Positions 1 to 8,450 of a stretch of DNA of 8,450 nucleotides are shown here, piece after piece. Source of the DNA: a virus (lineage: Duplodnaviria > Heunggongvirae > Uroviricota > Caudoviricetes); IMG/VR virus record IMGVR_UViG_3300029467_000119, positions 1-8,450 of that record. The stretch is one strand, 5' to 3'. The notes under the pieces were generated by a model. It made no database searches and had not been told where the DNA came from. It saw nothing but the letters and a program-made list of their open reading frames with translations. Positions within the stretch are counted from its first letter, which is position 1, and every line of letters starts with the position of its first letter. Made by a program: the position numbers and the translations under genes.

Positions 1-483
1 ATGACGAAGAAAAAAGCACATAAACTTGGTTCAGCGACCATCGCGCTTAACAAGCGCGCCCGTCACGAATACTTTATCGAAGAAGAGTTCGAAGCGGGAC
101 TTGCCCTGCAAGGCTGGGAGGTTAAATCCCTGCGCGCAGGAAAAGCCAATATCAGCGACAGCTACGTCCTTCTGCGTGACGGAGAGGCATTTCTGTTTGG
201 CGCTAACATCACGCCAATGGCCGTGGCCTCCACGCATGTGGTGTGCGATCCTACCCGTACCCGCAAGTTACTTCTCAACCAGCGCGAACTGGACTCATTG
301 TACGGTCGCGTCAATCGAGAAGGCTATACCGTAGTGGCGCTCTCCCTATACTGGAAAAATGCCTGGTGCAAAGTGAAAATCGGCGTCGCCAAAGGTAAGA
401 AACAGCACGATAAACGTTCAGACATCAAAGAACGCGAATGGCAGGTGGATAAAGCGCGTATCATGAAAAACGCCCACCGTTAA
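1..483 (+). CDS. smpB: SsrA-binding protein SmpB (trans-translation)
   Basis: 160-aa ORF from ATG at 1 to TAA at 481-483. The translation (MTKKKAHK...[36 protein letters not shown]...) is recognised as enterobacterial SmpB, and it sits immediately upstream of ssrA as in the conserved smpB-ssrA arrangement. Confidence 0.97.
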
Positions 484-674
484 ACCTGTAGTCCAATTAT
501 TGACCAGTTCCTCACCGCGCCTCCCTCTCCGGCGGCGCGAATGAACATCTTATTGGCTATCACATCCGACACAAATGTTGCCATCCCATTGCTTAATCGA
601 ATAAAAATCAGGCTACATGGGTGCTAAATCTTTAATGATAACGCCATTGAGGCTGGTCATGGCGCTCATAAATC

Positions 675-691
675 TGGTATACTTACCGTTA
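675..691 (+). promoter_or_regulatory. Candidate ssrA promoter: extended -10 element TGgTATACT (675..683), predicted precursor start about 7 nt before the mature 5' end
   Basis: TG at 675-676, one base, then TATACT at 678-683, positioned 15-20 nt upstream of the mature tmRNA 5' end at 698. No good -35 hexamer at 17-bp spacing, which is consistent with an extended -10 promoter. Read by eye only. Confidence 0.45.
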
Positions 692-697
692 CACATT

Positions 698-1060
698 GGG
701 GCTGATTCTGGATTCGACGGGATTTGCGAAACCCAAGGTGCATGCCGAGGGGCGGTTGGCCTCGTAAAAAGCCGCAAAAAATAGTCGCAAACGACGAAAA
801 CTACGCTTTAGCAGCTTAATAACCTGCTTAGAGCCCTCTCTCCCTAGCCTCCGCTCTTAGGACGGGGATCAAGAGAGGTCAAACCCAAAAGAGATCGCGT
901 GGAAGCCCTGCCTGGGGTTGAAGCGTTAAAACTTAATCAGGCTAGTTTGTTAGTGGCGTGTCCGTCCGCAGCTGGCAAGCGAATGTAAAGACTGACTAAG
1001 CATGTAGTACCGAGGATGTAGGAATTTCGGACGCGGGTTCAACTCCCGCCAGCTCCACCA
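698..1060 (+). ncRNA. ssrA: tmRNA (SsrA, 10Sa RNA), complete 363 nt
   Basis: Begins GGGGCTGATTCTGGATTCGACGGG at 698 and ends GGTTCAACTCCCGCCAGCTCCACCA at 1060 (tRNA-Ala-like acceptor/T-arm with CCA). Contains the internal tag reading frame and matches the length of E. coli tmRNA. Confidence 0.97.
787..819 (+). other. tmRNA tag-peptide reading frame (resume codon GCA at 787; encodes ANDENYALAA; TAA at 817-819 followed by a second TAA at 820-822)
   Basis: GCA AAC GAC GAA AAC TAC GCT TTA GCA GCT TAA TAA read directly from the sequence. This is the canonical enterobacterial degradation tag. Confidence 0.92.
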
Positions 1061-1070
1061 AATAAATCAA

Positions 1071-1099
1071 GGGGTTACGTGAAAGCGTAGCCCCTTTTT
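1071..1099 (+). terminator. Intrinsic terminator downstream of ssrA
   Basis: Stem GGGGTTACG (1071-1079) pairs with CGTAGCCCC (1085-1093) with one G.U pair, loop TGAAA, followed by TTTTT (1095-1099). Confidence 0.6.
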
Positions 1100-1118
1100 C
1101 TTAGGTAGTGGCGGCAAA

Positions 1119-1157
1119 ATGGCGACAGACTTTTGCGTCCATCTTGCCTGTCGCCAT
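1119..1157. repeat. Perfect 10-bp inverted repeat ATGGCGACAG (1119-1128) / CTGTCGCCAT (1148-1157) with 19-bp spacer; candidate operator or RNA hairpin upstream of the 1184 ORF
   Basis: Read directly. Lies 26 nt upstream of the ATG at 1184. A direct repeat CCATCTTG occurs at 1139-1146 and 1154-1161. Confidence 0.4.
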
Positions 1158-1183
1158 CTTGAAATCATGCAAAGAGGTTTGAC

Positions 1184-1666
1184 ATGGAAGAACTTCACTT
1201 TGTTTACATCAATGCAAATGGTCGTATCGGTGTTCACTCAATACAGAGCATCAGTTATAGCGAAAATCACATACAGGGCATTTGTAAGAACACCGATCGA
1301 ATAAAAACCTTCCGAAAAGACCGCATTCTTAAACAATACGATTCACAAGAACAAGCCATTCAGGAATGCGCGTCATTCCTCCCCGAAAACTACTCACATC
1401 TCACTAAGCAGTCAGGTCCGAAAAAAAATACATTCGATGTGTGTTTCACCGGATTTAAGCAAGCAGATAAAGAAAGGTTGGTTGATAAGGCGAATGAACA
1501 AGGATTAACGGTAAGAACATCTGTAACCCAAAACCTTCAGATGCTCTGTTGCGGTTACAATGCAGGCCCATCAAAAGTATCGGCAGCCAGGATGAAAGGC
1601 ACTATCATCATAGATGAGCCTGGCTTTATACATTTTCTTGAAACGGGTGAGATCCCAGATGAATAA
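1184..1666 (+). CDS. Hypothetical 160-aa protein with WYL-like N-terminal half and BRCT-like C-terminal half (prophage cargo)
   Basis: ATG at 1184 preceded by AAGAGG (1172-1177); TAA at 1664-1666. Residues about 5-48 (FVYINANGRIGVHSIQSISYSENHIQGICKNTDRIKTFRKDRI) fit the WYL-domain pattern ending in R-x-F-R-x-D-R-I. Residues about 84-155 (VCFTGF...ERL...GLTV..SV.....LCCG...GPSK...A...GTIIIDE..F..L) fit a BRCT fold pattern. About 38% GC by hand count of one 60-nt line. Confidence 0.7.
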   Translation: MEELHFVYINANGRIGVHSIQSISYSENHIQGICKNTDRIKTFRKDRILKQYDSQEQAIQECASFLPENYSHLTKQSGPKKNTFDVCFTGFKQADKERLVDKANEQGLTVRTSVTQNLQMLCCGYNAGPSKVSAARMKGTIIIDEPGFIHFLETGEIPDE

Positions 1667-1694
1667 AAACCTGCCGTAGCAGGTTCTCTTTCTT
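1665..1694. terminator. Bidirectional intrinsic terminator shared by the convergent 1184 ORF (+) and ogr (-)
   Basis: Stem ACCTGC (1669-1674), loop CGTA, stem GCAGGT (1679-1684). Flanked by AAAAA (1665-1669), which gives a U-tract for the minus-strand transcript, and by TCTCTTTCTT (1685-1694) for the plus-strand transcript. Confidence 0.6.
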
Positions 1695-1911
1695 AAAAAT
1701 TCATATGGCCCTGACCACCTGGCAATGGATGTGGAGGGGCTGTGGCAATCACTGCAGGTGTCACAATAAACCGGACCACTGTTTCATGGGTAACAAAAGT
1801 GCTCCCGCAGTTAATATTTTGGCACTGGCAGTAACGCTCTTTGGTGCTTTCTGTTACTTGAAAACTGCTCCTTGTGTGCGCCGCATGACCACACTTTGGA
1901 CAATTCATCAT
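1693..1911 (-). CDS. ogr: Ogr/B-family zinc-finger late-gene transcription activator (72 aa)
   Basis: From the second in-frame ATG (1909-1911) the product is 72 aa, MMNCPKCGHAAHTRSS...KERYCQCQNINCGSTF..., with C-x2-C-x22-C-x4-C spacing (Cys 4, 7, 30, 35) typical of P2 Ogr and 186 B. The ORF track's longer 87-aa form begins 45 nt upstream at 1956. Confidence 0.88.
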   Translation of the reverse strand: MMNCPKCGHAAHTRSSFQVTESTKERYCQCQNINCGSTFVTHETVVRFIVTPAVIATAPPHPLPGGQGHMNF

Positions 1912-1979
1912 ATCCAGATCCCTACCTTTGCTATCAGAATCATTGCAATGATACACAAAATATCAATATTGAGAACCAT

Positions 1980-3080
1980 TTATTCCATTTCAAGATCACC
2001 AATTTTCACTTCAAGTTCAATACTGGTCGTAAAACCGTTATCCGGGCTGACGGTATGTGTCAGAGTCGTAATGGTCCATTCCGCATCATCTATTGGCTGT
2101 TTAAAGCCACTGACCTTCACAGGCATTTCCGTGTAGAGATCTGCCCGACCTTCCGCCAGTTGTAGCGAGAATGACGCAACACCGCGTTGCAGGCGTTCCC
2201 ACTGCATTTTCGCCGCTCGTTCGGCGTTGCTCCGGTTGGCATAAGTGCGATTAAGTACCAGCACGTTTTCATCCGTCCCCACCAGATAATCGCCCTGCTT
2301 CGCTTCCGGCTCTTTCTTCTGCTTCTTAGTTCTGCGCTTACGCTTCACCGTGGTGCTTTCTTTCTTCGCGGGTTCGCGGGTATGCAACCAGCTGGCAATG
2401 ACGCCCGTATAGGCTCCGCGATCTGCCAGGGTAAAGCGGTGACTGTCGCCGTCCTTACGCGTGATAGTGATCACCGGCAGTGGTTTACCGCTGGCGCTTT
2501 TGCCCTGTCCCTGCCGGATGAATAACAGATTGCCATTTTTCACCGACGCAATAGCACCGTACTGGCGCGCCAGTCGCATCAGAAAACTGCCGTCACTCTC
2601 ATTGGTCTGGTCTATATGTTCCACGGGTTTATCTGACAGGTCTTTACCCAATGCCATCTTCAGTTTGTGCCGTGCAGCTATTTCCTTCACCACTTCCCCA
2701 ACGGTGGTCTTGTGCCACGACTTTTCACGGCGGGTATTCAGCGTTTCACGAAAATCAGCACTTCGCGCCCGGATAGTCAGGCGGTCCGGTGCGCCAGTGT
2801 GTTCAATCTCGTCCACCGTGAATGCCCCTTTCGGGAAAAGCAGCTGCCCCTTCCAGCCCAGCGCCAGCGTAATAACCGCACCACGGCGCGGCAGCACGAT
2901 TTTTCCGTCGGCGTCGTCCAGCTCCAGATCAAGCTGGTCTGCTTCAAAGCCCCGATTGTCCGTCAGCGTCAAACTCATCAGGCGGTTATCCAGCACAGTG
3001 GTGATATCCCTGCCCTCAATACTGATGCTGAATGCGGGAGTTTTGTTGCCTTTGTTAAGCAGTTCAGAGCTGAAATTCAC
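1980..3080 (-). CDS. D: P2 gpD-like phage tail protein (366 aa)
   Basis: Long ORF whose ATG overlaps the stop of the upstream U gene in an ATGA arrangement at 3077-3080. Recognised as the gpD family by its position in the conserved T-U-D-ogr order and by overall sequence character. Confidence 0.88.
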   Translation of the reverse strand: MNFSSELLNKGNKTPAFSISIEGRDITTVLDNRLMSLTLTDNRGFEADQLDLELDDADGKIVLPRRGAVITLALGWKGQLLFPKGAFTVDEIEHTGAPDRLTIRARSADFRETLNTRREKSWHKTTVGEVVKEIAARHKLKMALGKDLSDKPVEHIDQTNESDGSFLMRLARQYGAIASVKNGNLLFIRQGQGKSASGKPLPVITITRKDGDSHRFTLADRGAYTGVIASWLHTREPAKKESTTVKRKRRTKKQKKEPEAKQGDYLVGTDENVLVLNRTYANRSNAERAAKMQWERLQRGVASFSLQLAEGRADLYTEMPVKVSGFKQPIDDAEWTITTLTHTVSPDNGFTTSIELEVKIGDLEME

Positions 3081-3562
3081 GACAGCAGCCCTCCCACCGT
3101 TTTACTGATATCGCTTAAGGCAGACGTTGCCGTGTCCTGCAGATTATTCAGTTGCGCACTGAGATCACCGAACATATCGGACAGGGATTCATCCACCCGT
3201 TTGAGCGACAGGGTGAACTCAATCCGGCGCGGCATACCGTCGCGGAAAAACTCCGTTTTAGTCTGATTCAGTCCCTCAATCACATACATGCCGTAAATCG
3301 TGCCGCTGCCTTCAATCAGGGGCCATGCTTTCCCCTGTTCTGCCATCTGCTCCAGTACCAGCAACGACAGCCTGCCGCCTGTTATCTCCGGCATAAGAAC
3401 ACCAGAAAGCGTCAGCATGTCGTTGTCCGGTCCCAGAAACTGCGTGGACGGACGTCGGTTGACCCGGCTGTTTGCCGCATGTCGCCAGCTGCGTTGATAC
3501 TGCAGTTCCTGATACGGCACAGTGCGCAGCATAAACACGTACAATCCCAGCACCATCATCAT
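3077..3562 (-). CDS. U: P2 gpU-like phage tail protein (161 aa)
   Basis: ORF MMMVLGLYVFMLRTVPYQELQYQRSWRHAANSRVNRRPST... of the size expected for gpU. Its start overlaps the gpT stop (3559-3562) and its stop overlaps the gpD start, indicating translational coupling within the late tail operon. Confidence 0.88.
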   Translation of the reverse strand: MMMVLGLYVFMLRTVPYQELQYQRSWRHAANSRVNRRPSTQFLGPDNDMLTLSGVLMPEITGGRLSLLVLEQMAEQGKAWPLIEGSGTIYGMYVIEGLNQTKTEFFRDGMPRRIEFTLSLKRVDESLSDMFGDLSAQLNNLQDTATSALSDISKTVGGLLS

Positions 3563-4944
3563 GCGTCGTATCCCCCCTGATCGCTGTAGTTACTCCTGGC
3601 TTTTGCCTTCAGCCTGCGTTCACGTTCATCAAGCTGGCGTGCCACCTCCCGCGCAATATCCTGCGCACTTTGTCCTGGCTGCGTCTGGATGATGATCTGC
3701 GTCGGTGCCTCAATCCGTTGAGCGGGCGGCACAGTGGCTGCACGACTCACCATCGCTTCGCCGCCTTTCGCGGGAAGTGCCAAAGGATGTAACGGCGGAA
3801 GCTCTGCAGGCGCGGCAGCAACGCCCATCATTCCGGCAACAACGGCAGCCAGTGCAGCTGTATTTCTCCGACTGGTCACGTTTGCCGGACCGTTGACAAT
3901 TTCAGGCCCGTTTTCACCGACAATGCCGAACTGCCCGCGCGGGATATAGCCGCCGCTGTCATACATCCCCGCAAAGCCATATCCCCATGACGGAAAACCA
4001 CCCGATGGCATCATCACTTTACCGTCTGCATTCACCGTCGCAGGTTGCTGACGCGTCACGCTTTCCGGCAGTTTCGCCTTTGCAGCCTCTTTACTGACAA
4101 TACCGAGTTTCTCCAGCAACCAGGAAACGCCGGATTTCAGGGAGTCCAACGGATGCATGACCATATTCAGCCCTTCCGCCAGTGCCTCCCCGAATCGTCG
4201 CCCCATTGCCGCTGCGCTCTGCAGTTCGGCAGAGGTCGACTTAACAGGCGTCAGCAGATCAGTAAACCAGCCCCACAACGCCTGTACTTTGTCGCCAATC
4301 CACTGGAACACGGGCTTAAGCGGTTCGAATGCAGCACTGATGGGACCTGCCGCCGCTTTGAATCCTTCCACCACGCCACCGAGAAATGCGGTGATGGGTT
4401 GCCAGTATTTCCAGACAACCAGCGCCACGCCCGCCAGTGCAGTAACCACAAGACCTATCGGACTGAGCAGAGCACCTAACAGACCAGATACGGCATACAG
4501 GGCAACGCGCAGCATCGCCAGCGGACCGGATGCCAGCACACGCAGCACCGCGCCTGCGGCAGCCAGTCCACCGCGTAGTGCTGCCAGTGGATTCATAAAC
4601 ATCACAGCAACCGCACGTAAACCGGATAATCCAGACCGCAACAGTGCAACCGGCACACCTGCTACAGTTTTCAGGACATTCCCCGTCAGTGATGCGGTGC
4701 GGCGCAAAGACGACAACGGCGCAGTAAGTAAACCCGCTGCGTTGCCCGATGAAGCAAGCCCGCGTCGCAGCAGTGCCAGTGGAGCGCCAGCTAACCAGGA
4801 CAACGCGCTGCTGGTTCGTGTTACTGCTGCCGTAACGGAAGGTAACGTTTTGATACCCAGCACAGAGAATCCCAGACGGATGACTGCCAGCGGCCCCAGC
4901 ACTGCAGCCAGCGCCACCGCTAAGGTGCCGAGGCCTACGGTACC
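3559..4944 (-). pseudogene. T: Tail tape-measure protein gpT, 5'-truncated (C-terminal ~461 codons only)
   Basis: Ala/Gly/Leu-rich open frame typical of tape-measure proteins, ending ...ERERRLKAKARSNYSDQGGYDA. The frame is open from the stop at 3559-3561 up to position 4944 and is closed by an in-frame stop at 4945-4947. No ATG is present; the ORF track used GTG at 4915-4917. The length is roughly half that expected for P2-family gpT, recalled as about 800 aa. GC about 75% by hand count of one 60-nt line. Confidence 0.8.
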
Positions 4945-5201
4945 TCATTAATCGGTACACATGGCAGGCAGTGAATCTGTGCCAGAAAACCATCTATCAG
5001 CGTTGAATCTTCAGTCAGATCGGTAAGCAGCCAGATTTCTGGCGCATTGAGCTGATGCGGTTGATCTGGGTTGAGTTTGTTTCGCAGAGTCTGGACATTT
5101 ATTCCTGCACGTTCTGCCAGCTTCGCCATATTGTGACGTAGGGCAAAAGCTCTACAGGCTTCATCAAAATGCGGATGTTTGGAAATCTTATAATCAAACA
5201 T
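4935..5201 (-). CDS. cII: 186-type CII-family regulator, probable N-terminal fragment (88 aa, HTH retained), 3'-truncated at the deletion junction
   Basis: ATG at 5199-5201 preceded by AAGGGGG. The product MFDYKISKHPHFDEACRAFALRHNMAKLAERAGINVQTLRNKLNP... matches the N-terminal half of phage regulatory CII-family proteins, which I recall as about 170 aa. The ORF ends ...PINEVP* exactly where the gpT frame begins. Downstream of apl, as in phage 186. Confidence 0.65.
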   Translation of the reverse strand: MFDYKISKHPHFDEACRAFALRHNMAKLAERAGINVQTLRNKLNPDQPHQLNAPEIWLLTDLTEDSTLIDGFLAQIHCLPCVPINEVP

Positions 5202-5233
5202 GCGGCCCCCTTAGAAAGGTCTCATAATTGAAC

Positions 5234-5482
5234 TTAGTCACCAACGATGACATTAAAGTTGAAATTGGATTGGCCCATTTTTTTCCTGACTTGTTCCTTT
5301 TTGTACTCAAGGTAACGTATACATACTCTGTCTTTCGATTTTTCCTTTTTTTCCAAAAACTTAGCAAGTTTACCATTGTGAATCATTTGATATACCGAAC
5401 CACGAGATCGGCCTTCCCATTCCGCGAACTCTGCAGGGGTCGCCATCACTTTTGGTACACGAATTGAAATGTCGTTGCTCAT
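5234..5482 (-). CDS. Apl/Cox-like excisionase and transcriptional regulator (82 aa)
   Basis: Small ORF transcribed divergently from the CI gene, the position of apl in 186 and cox in P2. The segment TPAEFAEWEGRSRGSVYQMIHNGKLA resembles the Cox DNA-binding region. ATG at 5480-5482, TAA at 5234-5236. Confidence 0.7.
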   Translation of the reverse strand: MSNDISIRVPKVMATPAEFAEWEGRSRGSVYQMIHNGKLAKFLEKKEKSKDRVCIRYLEYKKEQVRKKMGQSNFNFNVIVGD

Positions 5483-5603
5483 AGTGCAGTATCTCTTACT
5501 TTGTGTGCGTTTTAGTTCGTTTTAGCTCGTCTCTTAAAATCTCACATCAAGAGACATGAAGACATTACGATCTTGATTCAAGATTGTCAAATGGAGATTA
5601 CCA
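5483..5603. promoter_or_regulatory. Divergent lysis/lysogeny switch region between apl and CI (presumed pR/pL and operators)
   Basis: 121-bp intergenic region containing a tandem 10-bp repeat TTTAGTTCGT/TTTAGCTCGT (5511-5530), direct GACAT repeats (5553-5557 and 5561-5565) and a 15-bp palindrome ATCTTGATTCAAGAT (5570-5584) about 20 bp upstream of the CI start codon. Exact promoter hexamers were not confidently assigned. Confidence 0.5.
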
Positions 5604-6236
5604 ATGTTAAACATCAGAATGGGTTCCGATACGGGAGGTAAGGCAGCTATTGAGAGGCTGCTTGAGGCTTATGGATTCACAACTAAGCAGGCATTAAGCG
5701 AGCATCTGAATGTCTCAAAAAGCACTATGGCAAACAGAGTGTTACGTGATAGCTTTCCTGCTGACTGGATAATTCAGTGCGCACTAGAAACTGGTGTTTC
5801 GTTGCTTTGGTTAGCAACAGGACAGGGAAGCATGAAAGAAGAATGTGAGCCTGAAAAAAGTTCTCATAATGAGAACAAACTAGCGATTAGACCGTTATCC
5901 AAACTCGTAACTCCATCTATTCCTAAAGGAACCTTGGAGAATGGAAAACTCCGTATTGATGAAAAGATTTTTCTAGACCACAGCATATTACCTGCACATT
6001 ATGAAGAATCGATGTTCTTAGAAACCCCTACTGATTGTTATCTCATCGATAAATCAGTTAAACAAGTCAGCAATGGATTCTGGCTTATCAATATTGATGG
6101 AATGATTATTATTGCAAAAATCATGCGGATTCCCGGCAATAAGATTGTAGTAAATCAAGATGAAGCGTCTTTCGAGTGCTCTGCTGATGATGTGGAAGTT
6201 ATTGGGCGCGCAGTCAAAGTAATAAAGAGTATCTAA
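5604..6236 (+). CDS. cI: Phage 186-type CI immunity repressor (210 aa)
   Basis: ATG at 5604 with GGAGA 5 nt upstream. The N-terminal motif TKQALSEHLNVSKSTMANRVLRDSFPADWIIQCALETGVSLLWLATGQG is characteristic of the phage CI-repressor HTH domain family. The stop at 6234-6236 is followed 2 nt later by the int start, giving a CI-int operon as in 186. Confidence 0.85.
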   Translation: MLNIRMGSDTGGKAAIERLLEAYGFTTKQALSEHLNVSKSTMANRVLRDSFPADWIIQCALETGVSLLWLATGQGSMKEECEPEKSSHNENKLAIRPLSKLVTPSIPKGTLENGKLRIDEKIFLDHSILPAHYEESMFLETPTDCYLIDKSVKQVSNGFWLINIDGMIIIAKIMRIPGNKIVVNQDEASFECSADDVEVIGRAVKVIKSI

Positions 6237-6238
6237 AC

Positions 6239-7255
6239 ATGACTGTCAGAAAACAGCCAAACGGTAAATGGTTGTGTGAGTGCTATCCCAATGGACGCAA
6301 TGGCAAACGCGTACGTAAGCAATTTGCTACGAAAGGCGAAGCCATTGCGTTTGAAAGCTTCACTATGGAAGAGGTGAACAAAAAACCGTGGTTAGGTGAA
6401 AAGGATGATCGGCGGCACCTGTCAGAATTAATTGAGCTGTGGTATTCCCTGTATGGTCGAACTCTCGCTGACCCCAAGCGTTTAATGGCGAAATTAAAAA
6501 TCATTTGTGGTGGACTTGGTGATCCCATAGCCTCTGAATTGACAGCAGGTGATTTCACTAAGTATCGGGAAGCGCGACTAAAAGGTGACGTTAAAAACAT
6601 TGATGGTGTGTTTATGTCGCCGGTTAAGCCTCGAACAGTAAACCTTGAACAACGCAATCTATCATCAGTTTTTGGAACTTTAAAAAAATTAGGCCACTGG
6701 TCCGCCCCCAACCCACTCGCCGGTCTACCAACATTTAAAATTGCAGAGGGCGAACTGGCATTTCTGACACAGGAAGAAATAAAACGCTTGCTGAATGCCT
6801 GTGCTGATTCTCAAAATCCCAGCCTACTTTTGATTGCAAAAATATGCTTAGCCACAGGCGCGCGCTGGAGTGAAGCCGAAAACCTGCAGGGTCATCAGTT
6901 ATCAAAATACCGTATAACTTATACCAAGACAAAGGGCAAGAAAAACCGAACCGTACCTATTTCTCAGGAACTGTACAACGAACTCCCCAAAAAACGAGGG
7001 AAGTTATTCACACCATGCAGAAAAGCCTTTGAACGGGCGGTAAAACGGGCCGGTATCGAACTACCGGAAGGCCAATGCACCCACGTCCTGCGCCATACAT
7101 TTGCCAGCCACTTTATGATGAATGGCGGAAACATACTGGTGCTGCGCGATATTCTAGGACATGCGGATATAAAAATGACGATGATCTACGCTCATTTTTC
7201 TCCAGATCATTTAGAAGACGCGGTGACTAAAAATCCACTAAATTTATTAAAGTGA
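6239..7255 (+). CDS. int: P2-type tyrosine integrase (338 aa)
   Basis: N-terminus ...NGKRVRKQFATKGEAIAFE... and a C-terminal catalytic region with GARWSE (Arg), HVLRHTF (His-x-x-Arg) and MIYAHF (Tyr), typical of P2/186 integrases. Confidence 0.95.
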   Translation: MTVRKQPNGKWLCECYPNGRNGKRVRKQFATKGEAIAFESFTMEEVNKKPWLGEKDDRRHLSELIELWYSLYGRTLADPKRLMAKLKIICGGLGDPIASELTAGDFTKYREARLKGDVKNIDGVFMSPVKPRTVNLEQRNLSSVFGTLKKLGHWSAPNPLAGLPTFKIAEGELAFLTQEEIKRLLNACADSQNPSLLLIAKICLATGARWSEAENLQGHQLSKYRITYTKTKGKKNRTVPISQELYNELPKKRGKLFTPCRKAFERAVKRAGIELPEGQCTHVLRHTFASHFMMNGGNILVLRDILGHADIKMTMIYAHFSPDHLEDAVTKNPLNLLK

Positions 7256-7262
7256 GAAAAGA

Positions 7263-8450
7263 ATGCAACAGGATAGAGATGTTGAAACTCAGTTAAATAT
7301 GATGCTGAATGAGTTGTATAGTAATGAGGATTTAATGCCACCTTTTAAACCTAAAGGTGACATCGTTTCTGATTTTAACTCTCGCTGCAATGAATACCTT
7401 AATTTTTTAAATGAATTTAAAATTAAAAACAAAACCAGGCTTAATATTGATCTGCTAATAAAGCGAGTATTAAAAATACAACTAGGAATAACCGAGAGCC
7501 TTCAAGAGTTTTTAGCGGGTGACATCAAAGAGGCATATGATATTTTCGATGACACTTTTTCAGACAATCTTATTAATAAGCATATTCAAAGAATCACAAT
7601 CCCCCTTAAGGAAATATGTAATTATGATCAACCACTCTATAGAGTACGCAAATCAGACAAGCCATTACTTAACAGGGAAGATATTTTCCATATACCATTT
7701 TCCTGCCGACACCTTGTCAGTGCTCAACGTTACTCAGTAGCGGGACTCCCCTGTTTATATCTAGGTTCATCTCTATATGTATGCTGGCAAGAAATGGACA
7801 AACCAGATTTTGATAAACTATATATATCCTCATTCATATCACAAGATACTAAATCTAAAATCCTTAACTTTGTTCCACAACTGAAAACCTCAATCAATAC
7901 TAAAGAATGGAGCAGCGAAGAGTTAAGAACAAATAATTATATCAAAGCTTCGTATTTGGTTCTCTGGCCCTTAATTTTCTCATGTAGCTATATAAAAACA
8001 CATGAAAACTCAAGTTTTACGCAAGAATATATAATACCTAATTTACTCATGCAGTGGATAAGCACACGGGGTCAATCTCCAATATCTGGCATAGCCTATT
8101 CATCAACGAAAATGAAAAAAAGTCTAGGTTCAAAACTTTCAATAAATGTTGTATTACCCCCCAAAGCCACATATAGACAAACGACTCAAAAAGATTTTTG
8201 CCCAAGGTTGTCATCATTATTTGATTTTACTCCACCTGTTTCATGGCAGGTTTTAAAAACATTAGAGTATCAGAATGCAATCCCTAAAACATCTGAGCAG
8301 GGGAAAGCTATCAGATTTCTTGCTCGAAAAGAAAGGCTATCTGGCATTACTGATTTTGATAGTGACATAATCAGACTTTACCCATTAACTGACTTTTATA
8401 AACTGGAAGTTTGTATGGATCGCTTATTTGATTATTCACCTATTAGATAG
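7263..8450 (+). CDS. Hypothetical 395-aa protein with a central RES-like (NAD+-targeting toxin-type) domain; AT-rich prophage cargo
   Basis: ATG at 7263, 7 nt after the int stop, with a purine-rich GAGAAAAG upstream; TAG at 8448-8450. About 33% GC by hand count of two 60-nt lines. Residues 155-177 (QRYSVAGLPCLYLGSSLYVCWQE) and 274-299 (ISGIAYSSTKMKKSLGSKLSINVVLP) resemble the conserved Arg, Glu and Ser motifs of RES domains: Arg156 codon 7728-7730, Glu177 codon 7791-7793, Ser280 codon 8100-8102. The flanking N-terminal (~115 aa) and C-terminal (~95 aa) regions are unassigned. Confidence 0.8.
   Translation: MQQDRDVETQLNMMLNELYSNEDLMPPFKPKGDIVSDFNSRCNEYLNFLNEFKIKNKTRLNIDLLIKRVLKIQLGITESLQEFLAGDIKEAYDIFDDTFSDNLINKHIQRITIPLKEICNYDQPLYRVRKSDKPLLNREDIFHIPFSCRHLVSAQRYSVAGLPCLYLGSSLYVCWQEMDKPDFDKLYISSFISQDTKSKILNFVPQLKTSINTKEWSSEELRTNNYIKASYLVLWPLIFSCSYIKTHENSSFTQEYIIPNLLMQWISTRGQSPISGIAYSSTKMKKSLGSKLSINVVLPPKATYRQTTQKDFCPRLSSLFDFTPPVSWQVLKTLEYQNAIPKTSEQGKAIRFLARKERLSGITDFDSDIIRLYPLTDFYKLEVCMDRLFDYSPIR

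Follow-up and report, generated by a model that had tools for sequence, protein, structure and literature searches.

How does a phage locus come to carry the beginning of an early regulatory gene, cII, directly against the final part of the tape-measure gene T? The question is posed by the window, as we call the whole stretch of 8,450 nucleotides analysed here, in which both genes are incomplete, lie on the same strand and meet within a few base pairs. The original prediction read this arrangement as the scar of one deletion inside a prophage. Our findings now place both ends of that deletion on an intact relative. We conclude, with a probability of roughly 0.93, that the element is a defective prophage left beside the Escherichia coli ssrA gene by a single internal deletion of 25.4 kb. 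The parent phage is a Cartapus/Fels-2-like temperate myovirus (Peduoviridae) with a 186-type genetic switch, and the deletion is a lineage-specific, single-step instance of ordinary prophage decay that is nothing new in kind.

The Locus and Its Gene Content

The window begins in host DNA, with smpB at 1-483. It then runs into ssrA (698-1060, plus strand), the tmRNA gene that is the target of integration; ARAGORN recovers a tmRNA with the tag ANDENYALAA at this place, and syntenic E. coli loci bear the annotation ssrA. The gene's 3' end is contributed by the prophage, phage DNA extending from position 1016 onward. The attL core (1016-1053, plus strand) starts exactly where homology to phage Cartapus begins, and it forms a perfect 38-nt direct repeat with attR. 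The latter was located by a blastn-short comparison of window positions 980-1130 with four related loci (L015, L036, L039 and L002) and falls at the window-equivalent positions 8575-8612, 125 nt past the window's end. An identical 38-nt att repeat flanks the intact prophage described below.

Next to attL, at the ogr end of the element, lies a BRCT-domain cargo gene (1184-1666, plus strand; 160 aa; Pfam BRCT at the gathering threshold). It is followed on the minus strand by the ogr/Delta late-gene activator (1693-1911; Pfam Ogr_Delta, E = 9e-21; annotated in syntenic loci), by the gene for gpD, the late control D or tail protein (1980-3080; an ORF whose exact protein stands beside full-length T in the intact prophages L024 and L026), and by that for the gpU tail protein (3077-3562; an ORF matching Pfam Phage_P2_GpU), all of them intact. 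Then come the two incomplete genes, again on the minus strand: T', the 3' remnant of T (3559-4942; codons 566-1025 of 1025), and cII', the 5' remnant of cII (4935-5201; 87 native codons, then a proline codon and a stop contributed out of frame by gpT DNA). Beyond these, every gene is again intact, beginning with the apl/cox-type excisionase and lytic-switch gene (5234-5482, minus strand; 82 aa; an ORF whose Cartapus counterpart is annotated as a Cox-like excisionase). On the plus strand follow the gene for a 186-type CI immunity repressor (5604-6236; 210 aa; Pfam Phage_CI_repr and Phage_CI_C; exact protein in intact prophages), that for a tyrosine integrase (6239-7255; 338 aa; Pfam Int_N and Phage_integrase; equal in length to its counterpart in intact prophages) and, between int and attR, a cargo gene of 395 aa (7263-8450; exact protein in intact prophages).

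The hallmarks of P2/186-like phages recognised through Pfam and the ORFs comprise a divergent cI versus apl-cII switch, the tyrosine integrase, the Ogr/Delta activator, gpD and gpU, and the same two sources (the ORF list and Pfam) indicate that no gene essential for replication, packaging or lysis lies between the att sites. The Cartapus counterpart of the 395-aa cargo gene is diverged and annotated as a putative RES protein; the 395-aa protein itself has no RES match in Pfam, and its sole match, a marginal one to a Plasmodium family, is read as spurious.

The Junction

From an alignment perspective, the phage part of the window is partitioned into two arms, each of which matches Fels-2/Cartapus-like phages: a late arm (1016-4942) with ogr, D, U and the 3' part of T, and an early arm (4941-8450) with the 5' part of cII, apl, cI, int and the cargo gene. 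In blastn comparisons, the late-arm alignment stops at 4942 and the early-arm alignment begins at 4941. A three-way alignment of the window with the parental gpT sequence (L024) and the parental cII sequence (L036) leaves the dinucleotide TA at 4941-4942, common to both parental breakpoints, as the sole overlap of the arms, with 0 bases inserted; the same TA-only overlap was obtained with three further loci (L018, L017 and L013). Every base at 4900-4985 can be assigned either to T or to cII. The original prediction had placed one junction within 4935-4960 and had proposed an alignment against an intact relative to find its ends and any microhomology; that alignment puts the breakpoint at 4941/4942, explains each base by one of the two arms and yields a microhomology of 2 bp.

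The reading frames around the junction are also as predicted. The cII-like ORF runs from 5201 to 4935 on the minus strand, encodes 88 aa ending in PINEVP and stops at 4935-4937 (cta, which is TAG on the minus strand), while the tape-measure frame is open from 4944 downward and closed by tca (TGA) at 4945-4947. The program-made ORF for T' starts at a GTG at 4917 and is 452 aa long. The prediction had further pointed to the hexamer CGGTAC, which it left without an interpretation. CGGTAC does occur at 4938-4943 and again at 4953-4958, but the breakpoints did not each bring a copy with them: the left one consists of CGGTA from gpT and C from cII and was made by the junction, whereas the right copy is native to cII. 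For 6.5% of the window's positions, a 6-mer lying over the position has a second copy no more than 25 nt away, and a repeated 6-mer is found in 4.1% of its 26-nt windows. With one copy made by the junction and a frequency at chance level, CGGTAC was rejected as a repeat with a part in the mechanism.

The Undeleted Parent

Two look-ups, one with the exact gpD and one with the exact 395-aa cargo protein, led to the same contig, ABYMZQ010000017.1 (GCA_049245355.1). This contig, the source of loci L024 and L036, carries one complete prophage of 32,999 bp at ssrA, with both arms, a T of 1025 aa and a CII of 169 aa. Window positions 1-4942 differ from it at 10 positions, all in host DNA (26-688), so that identity over the late arm of the phage is 100%; the T' region is likewise 100% identical to L024 and L026, both with a 1025-aa T. 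The early arm differs from the contig at 2 of 3,510 positions, one of which, 5279, is a SNP in apl (N68K) found in the window alone among the contigs compared. More broadly, window positions 4941-8450 are 99.8-99.97% identical to the early arms of the intact prophages L013-L018 and L032-L040; intact prophages with early arms of this identity were found via the exact CI protein.

In the coordinates of ABYMZQ010000017.1, gpT is broken at 28240 and cII at 53679/53680, so that 25,440 bp are missing. Sizes taken between the att cores agree with this estimate, because a parent of 32,999 bp less a remnant of 7,559 bp again gives 25,440 bp, and the loss of roughly 25 kb that had been predicted is thus borne out by measurement against an intact prophage. 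What was lost can be read from the parent contig and from the Cartapus annotation. On the tail side, the missing interval holds the 5' part of T and the genes for the tail chaperones, tube, sheath, invertase, fibre, baseplate and tail completion as well as for lysis (holin and endolysin). On the packaging side, it holds the head (capsid), terminase and portal genes and cos, and on the early side a cargo gene, a DinI-like gene, gpA, dam, a TraR-like gene, DUF2732, DUF5347, fil and the 3' part of cII. Replication genes, cos, capsid and lysis genes and most tail genes, all of which had been claimed as deleted, lie inside this interval in the intact parent and in Cartapus. The claim had been derived from the gene order of phage 186; the deletion that it implied is supported, but the nearest intact relatives are Cartapus/Fels-2-like phages and not 186 itself.

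Mechanism of the Deletion

How might the junction have formed? In the scenario that we favour, a Cartapus/Fels-2-like phage used the 3' end of ssrA as its integration site and, as a prophage there, underwent one illegitimate recombination that joined mid-T to mid-cII via the 2-bp TA. This step removed 25,440 bp and left a remnant of 7,559 bp that keeps attL, the BRCT gene, ogr, D, U, T', cII', apl, cI, int, the 395-aa cargo gene and attR. That the recombination was illegitimate is indicated by a homology of 2 bp together with a junction free of IS DNA, att similarity and long repeats. Its timing is suggested by the product, which has neither cos nor replication genes and hence could not be packaged, so that the event presumably occurred in the integrated prophage. 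The break itself might have been a double-strand break or a replication error, mended by microhomology end-joining.

Such a pathway has a precedent. Break repair in E. coli can produce deletions of 13-35 kb, and of up to 40 kb via ligA-dependent alternative end-joining, with microhomology or none (PMC4872102). The window resembles these products in a deletion of tens of kb, a microhomology junction and the lack of an IS element or long repeat; it differs in that the break was induced there, whereas the event here was natural. The same 2-bp junction would, however, also result from gyrase-mediated exchange or from template switching during replication.

Several other routes were considered and rejected. 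An IS-mediated adjacent deletion finds no IS element, IS end or inserted DNA at the junction, and a site-specific event driven by Int at att finds no match to the att core near it. For recombination between homologous repeats, only TA is shared and no repeat of at least 20 nt occurs at both breakpoints; consistently, no long repeat was found around 4700-5200, where a local repeat scan was unremarkable. Resection by RecBCD from a cut at cos and bounded by Chi was likewise dismissed, Cartapus being without any Chi site and having only distant 7/8 near-matches.

Alternative Origins of the Junction

Might the junction instead be non-random, one of a class of deletions that recurrently join T to cII, arising through an early-region break that prefers a certain site or through selection for the combination of cI-int-cargo with ogr-D-U? 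In several other prophages (HH107, PK5/CUPF12, ECL27977, CP007025, E308 and LR-27), the late region is indeed joined to cII or apl, and in five of the junctions the break in cII falls on identical nucleotides (Cartapus 27181-27185), with a partner that differs every time. The window's own cII breakpoint (Cartapus 27106), however, lies 78 nt away from that site and shows a microhomology of 2 bp only. The search for remnants favoured short ones, which biases their endpoints towards T and cII. Moreover, the genes retained in the window are at most 2 mismatches away from an intact prophage, so that the deletion looks recent and carries no sign of long-term selection. We therefore regard a recurrent class as a very unlikely origin of the window's junction.

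Even less probable is a tandem double lysogen at ssrA, in which T of the first prophage was joined to cII of the second with the loss of about 58.4 kb (25,440 + 32,999). Such tandem arrangements do occur at this att site, as E. coli 503440 has the order ...cII-apl-cI-int-X-[att]-BRCT-ogr-D-U-T... there, and two different phages might account for arms that are unequally related to Cartapus, at 99.8% against 86%. A single intact prophage nevertheless carries both arms in a form essentially identical to the window, which makes two phages unnecessary, and the end product would be indistinguishable from that of a deletion within one prophage. The inequality of the arms is accounted for by the known mosaicism of P2-like phages, whose structural and regulatory regions recombine independently (PMC3448106), together with the existence of one intact parent with the same combination.

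Finally, the chance that the junction is an assembly chimera, or that the short genes are native to a small functional phage or a satellite, is negligible: the abrupt change of similarity at 4942 is all that speaks for either, whereas the same junction recurs on at least 23 contigs from different samples and assemblers (SPAdes, MEGAHIT and Logan; one contig in 8 samples), no cos, replication or capsid gene lies between the att sites, and the CII family has a length of 169 aa.

Distribution of the Junction

The identical 88-aa CII' and junction stand on at least 23 independent contigs, the CII' protein being indexed in 27 blocks of the collection and 23 contigs having been read. They stem from several projects and comprise gut metagenomes as well as isolate runs, a breadth of origin that rules out an assembly artefact. 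The 452-aa T' ORF follows CII' wherever a contig extends far enough, and every junction contig that reaches the flanks shows the chromosomal context smpB...ypjA. Among 5,426 complete E. coli genomes of RefSeq, not one covered a 120-nt junction probe, and the exact junction 40-mer had 0 matches in GTDB species-representative genomes and 0 in JGI metagenome contigs. An intact late arm is found at ssrA in many E. coli genomes, at 98-99.7% identity. Together, a junction absent from the complete genomes and an intact late arm that is common imply a deletion that is lineage-specific and not fixed in the species.

One variant, L005, has the same junction and 124 mismatches to the window, all within 2277-4819 (D-U-T'). 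After the deletion, either the L005 lineage or the window's lineage swapped its D-U-T' patch with another P2-like phage. A corollary of such patch replacement is that remnants of this kind stay open to recombination with incoming phages.

Truncated Genes and Retained Functions

T' and cII' are pseudogene fragments. Relative to the parental CII of 169 aa, the window's version retains 87 native residues followed by one foreign proline, and it covers positions 1-80 of the 146 positions of the Pfam Phage_CP76 (CII) profile. Among the best 120 CII homologue clusters, nearly all are 169 aa long, so that the predicted halving of cII is confirmed on all three counts. The gpT remnant corresponds to residues 566-1025 of 1025, with 460 residues kept and the N-terminal 565 lost, again as foreseen. 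The 461-aa translation of T' has no Pfam match, whereas full-length T has PF10145. Natural homologues of such short lengths, in this adjacency and in intact phages, would have spoken for native genes; instead, the near-identical intact prophages have a CII of 169 aa and a T of 1025 aa, and the adjacency of T and cII is found in remnants only and not in the intact prophages compared.

Do the fragments still have consequences? A 186 CII cut to 145 residues is fully active, and its helix-turn-helix lies around residues 36-37 (PMC7708051). The 87-residue fragment retains the helix-turn-helix region but is without about 60 further residues of the 145-residue active form, and by this analogy it is probably inactive. 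A simple scan revealed no terminator-like site between cII' and T'. Conceivably, T'-U-D may now be transcribed by readthrough from the apl-cII promoter, a tentative suggestion that follows from this gap in termination signals.

Judging by its gene content, the remnant is unable to replicate, lyse, package or form particles. On the other hand, the remnant has kept cI, int, apl and its two att sites undamaged, and these differ very little from their counterparts in complete prophages, for which reason homoimmune immunity, and perhaps excision, should persist. On sequence grounds, CI immunity and the cargo genes should still be expressed, and the remnant may still be excisable. In the LF82 lysogen, a Cartapus gene annotated 'putative exonuclease protein' is listed with an expression 15-fold above background (PMC9928086). 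The Cartapus gene at the position of the BRCT gene bears the annotation 'putative exonuclease protein', and from this shared annotation we infer that the expressed gene is the counterpart of the BRCT gene. The locus offers a clean, datable case of a lysogen disarming its prophage in one step, with the undeleted parent known to the base, and the disarmed remnant retains a repressor, an integrase, an excisionase, att sites and two cargo genes.

A Shared cII Breakpoint in Other Remnants

A separate observation concerns the five junctions that break cII at one spot (Cartapus 27181-27185), which on the coding strand lies between GGTGCGGTATC and TGG. HH107, PK5/CUPF12 and ECL27977 have theirs at ssrA; E308 and LR-27, whose integrase is a different one, have theirs at ybjL-rcdA. 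The partners joined to the shared cII site all differ, comprising three positions in T, the portal gene and, in ECL27977, an internal IS66 fragment, with overlaps of 6 to 12 nt. In LR-27, the join produces an in-frame CII-T fusion ORF of 420 aa. The window's breakpoint lies outside this cluster. When compared by eye, dif-like and gix-like sites showed poor similarity to the shared cII site.

A fixed cII end combined with variable partners suggests either a site-specific nick or break at the shared cII site or strong selection on the truncated product, CII(1-112). The window's break may stem from the same fragile zone as this site, at a distance of 78 nt. That the window's scar is itself one instance of a non-random process, whereby 186-type prophages are repeatedly broken within the region of cII and the end is joined across cos to late-gene DNA, we consider distinctly unlikely. 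If it were true, the 'grounding' of prophages would be semi-programmed and not a matter of random decay. Of all that was observed here, only the recurrent cII breakpoint of other strains might merit further study.

Comparison with Known Systems

Given the internal deletion, how does the element compare with what is known? A phage satellite of the P4-like or PICI-like type was considered and rejected, as the element carries neither a primase or replication gene nor genes of the sid/psu type, and as cos lies in the deleted interval. The E. coli remnants HH107, PK5/CUPF12 and ECL27977 at ssrA, and E308 and LR-27 at ybjL-rcdA, are likewise internally deleted, keep their ogr and cI-int ends and have a truncated cII; PGAP labels the other remnants 'incomplete; partial in the middle of a contig'. 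They differ from the window in the position and overlap of the break, which falls at nt ~336-339 of cII with overlaps of 6 to 12 nt in these remnants and at nt 260-262 with 2 nt in the window.

Cartapus (LF82 prophage 4; Peduoviridae, Elveevirus; NC_070909), along with Fels-2 and the RE2010-like Salmonella phages, shares the ssrA att site with the window's element, and it also has the gene order BRCT-ogr-D-U-T ... cII-apl-cI-int-cargo. It is a spontaneously induced prophage that gives encapsidated genomes (PMC9928086). Window positions 1016-4942 align with Cartapus 23463-19537 without gaps at 99.82% identity, as does the T' region with Cartapus 19537-20920 (99.82%), whereas window positions 4942-7267 are 86% identical to Cartapus 27106-24784, and the cargo gene of Cartapus shows about 73% identity to that of the window over 215 nt. 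The principal difference is one of completeness, Cartapus being complete at 33,368 bp and the window's element being without 25.4 kb. Closer still is the prophage of GCA_049245355.1, which occupies the same chromosomal site and is effectively the undeleted parent type, in a host whose smpB region differs at 10 positions and which thus represents a different strain background. For annotation, these comparisons mean that the locus should be recorded as a defective Cartapus/Fels-2-like prophage, and not as a small phage, a satellite or a set of novel short genes.

Recurrent breakage within cII

Five prophage remnants other than the window are broken at the same cII nucleotides, equivalent to positions 27181-27185 of the intact reference phage Cartapus (NC_070909). 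On the coding strand the breakpoint common to the five reads GGTGCGGTATC/TGG (the slash marking the break, at about cII nucleotides 336-339), and it lies outside the window, 78 nt past the cII breakpoint of the window itself. The break falls at 7622-7628 in L002, at 5476-5485 in L021/L023, at about 9679 in L020 (ECL27977), at 6009-6014 in L042 and at 5565-5576 in L043 (LR-27), the L numbers being our handles for the compared loci and contigs. These remnants occupy two att sites and carry differing immunity sequences, and the partner joined to cII is different in each of them: the tape-measure gene gpT at three points (19851, 19984 and 20494), the portal gene (at 1478) and an internal fragment of an IS66 transposase, with junction overlaps of 6 to 12 nt. 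Because one end is constant and the partners vary, the sequence comparison suggests either a site-specific break or selection at this point of cII. Chi sites were considered as the cause of the common breakpoint and fail to account for it.

The remnant at the ybjL-rcdA locus of E. coli LR-27 joins cII to T without a shift of reading frame. This creates a 420-aa open reading frame (L043 4640-5902), to which PGAP gives the label 'phage regulatory CII family protein' and which it treats as intact. Contrary to that label, the product is a fusion of an N-terminal CII part to a C-terminal tape-measure part. The partly decayed prophage of E. coli ECL27977 has lost internal segments of its tape-measure gene (L020 5059-7358), the alignment to Cartapus skipping about 777 nt (19656-18881) and being interrupted a second time between about 18385 and 18016. 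Since this copy of T lacks internal segments and is also annotated as frameshifted, the gene seems to be prone to internal rearrangement.

Relatives of the window prophage

A third independent decay of the window's prophage type is found in CP007025.1 and GCA_048985445.1 (L019, L034 and L041), where the right arm of the prophage is 99.97% identical to the window. Here the junction is complex (L019 9643-9668): gpT is interrupted close to the 3' end, at window-equivalent 3725, and some 35 nt of inverted sheath-region DNA lie between this point and the one where the sequence restarts within apl (window-equivalent 5271). Since the host DNA is only about 95.7% identical to the window, the bacterium probably belongs to an Escherichia species other than that of the window.

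The window's own deletion junction is also present in L005 (ERZ1303429 NODE_1399). All 124 mismatches between the two lie within the D-U-T' segment (window-equivalent 2277-4819), with none elsewhere; this patch came from another P2-like phage by gene conversion, after the deletion and in the lineage of either L005 or the window. Of the contigs that carry this remnant, those matching the window best (L003 and L008) differ from it solely at 5279, in apl codon 68, where the window has T and the other compared contigs, remnant and intact, have G; the change converts Apl N68 to K.

In E. coli 503440 (L022 1252-10375) the genes run ...cII-apl-cI-int-X-[att]-BRCT-ogr-D-U-T..., an order that indicates two related prophages in tandem at the att site of the window prophage.

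Cargo genes

Intact cargo genes are found at both prophage ends (window 7263-8450 and 1184-1666). The 160-aa protein encoded at 1184-1666 has a BRCT domain at threshold. For the 395-aa protein (7263-8450), the single Pfam match, to a Plasmodium family of unknown function, is marginal and was read as spurious. The position of its gene is a variable cargo slot, because related prophages have different genes there, encoding proteins of 218, 371 and 401 aa. In Cartapus the counterpart of the 395-aa protein has diverged, and its annotation reads putative RES/NAD+-binding protein.
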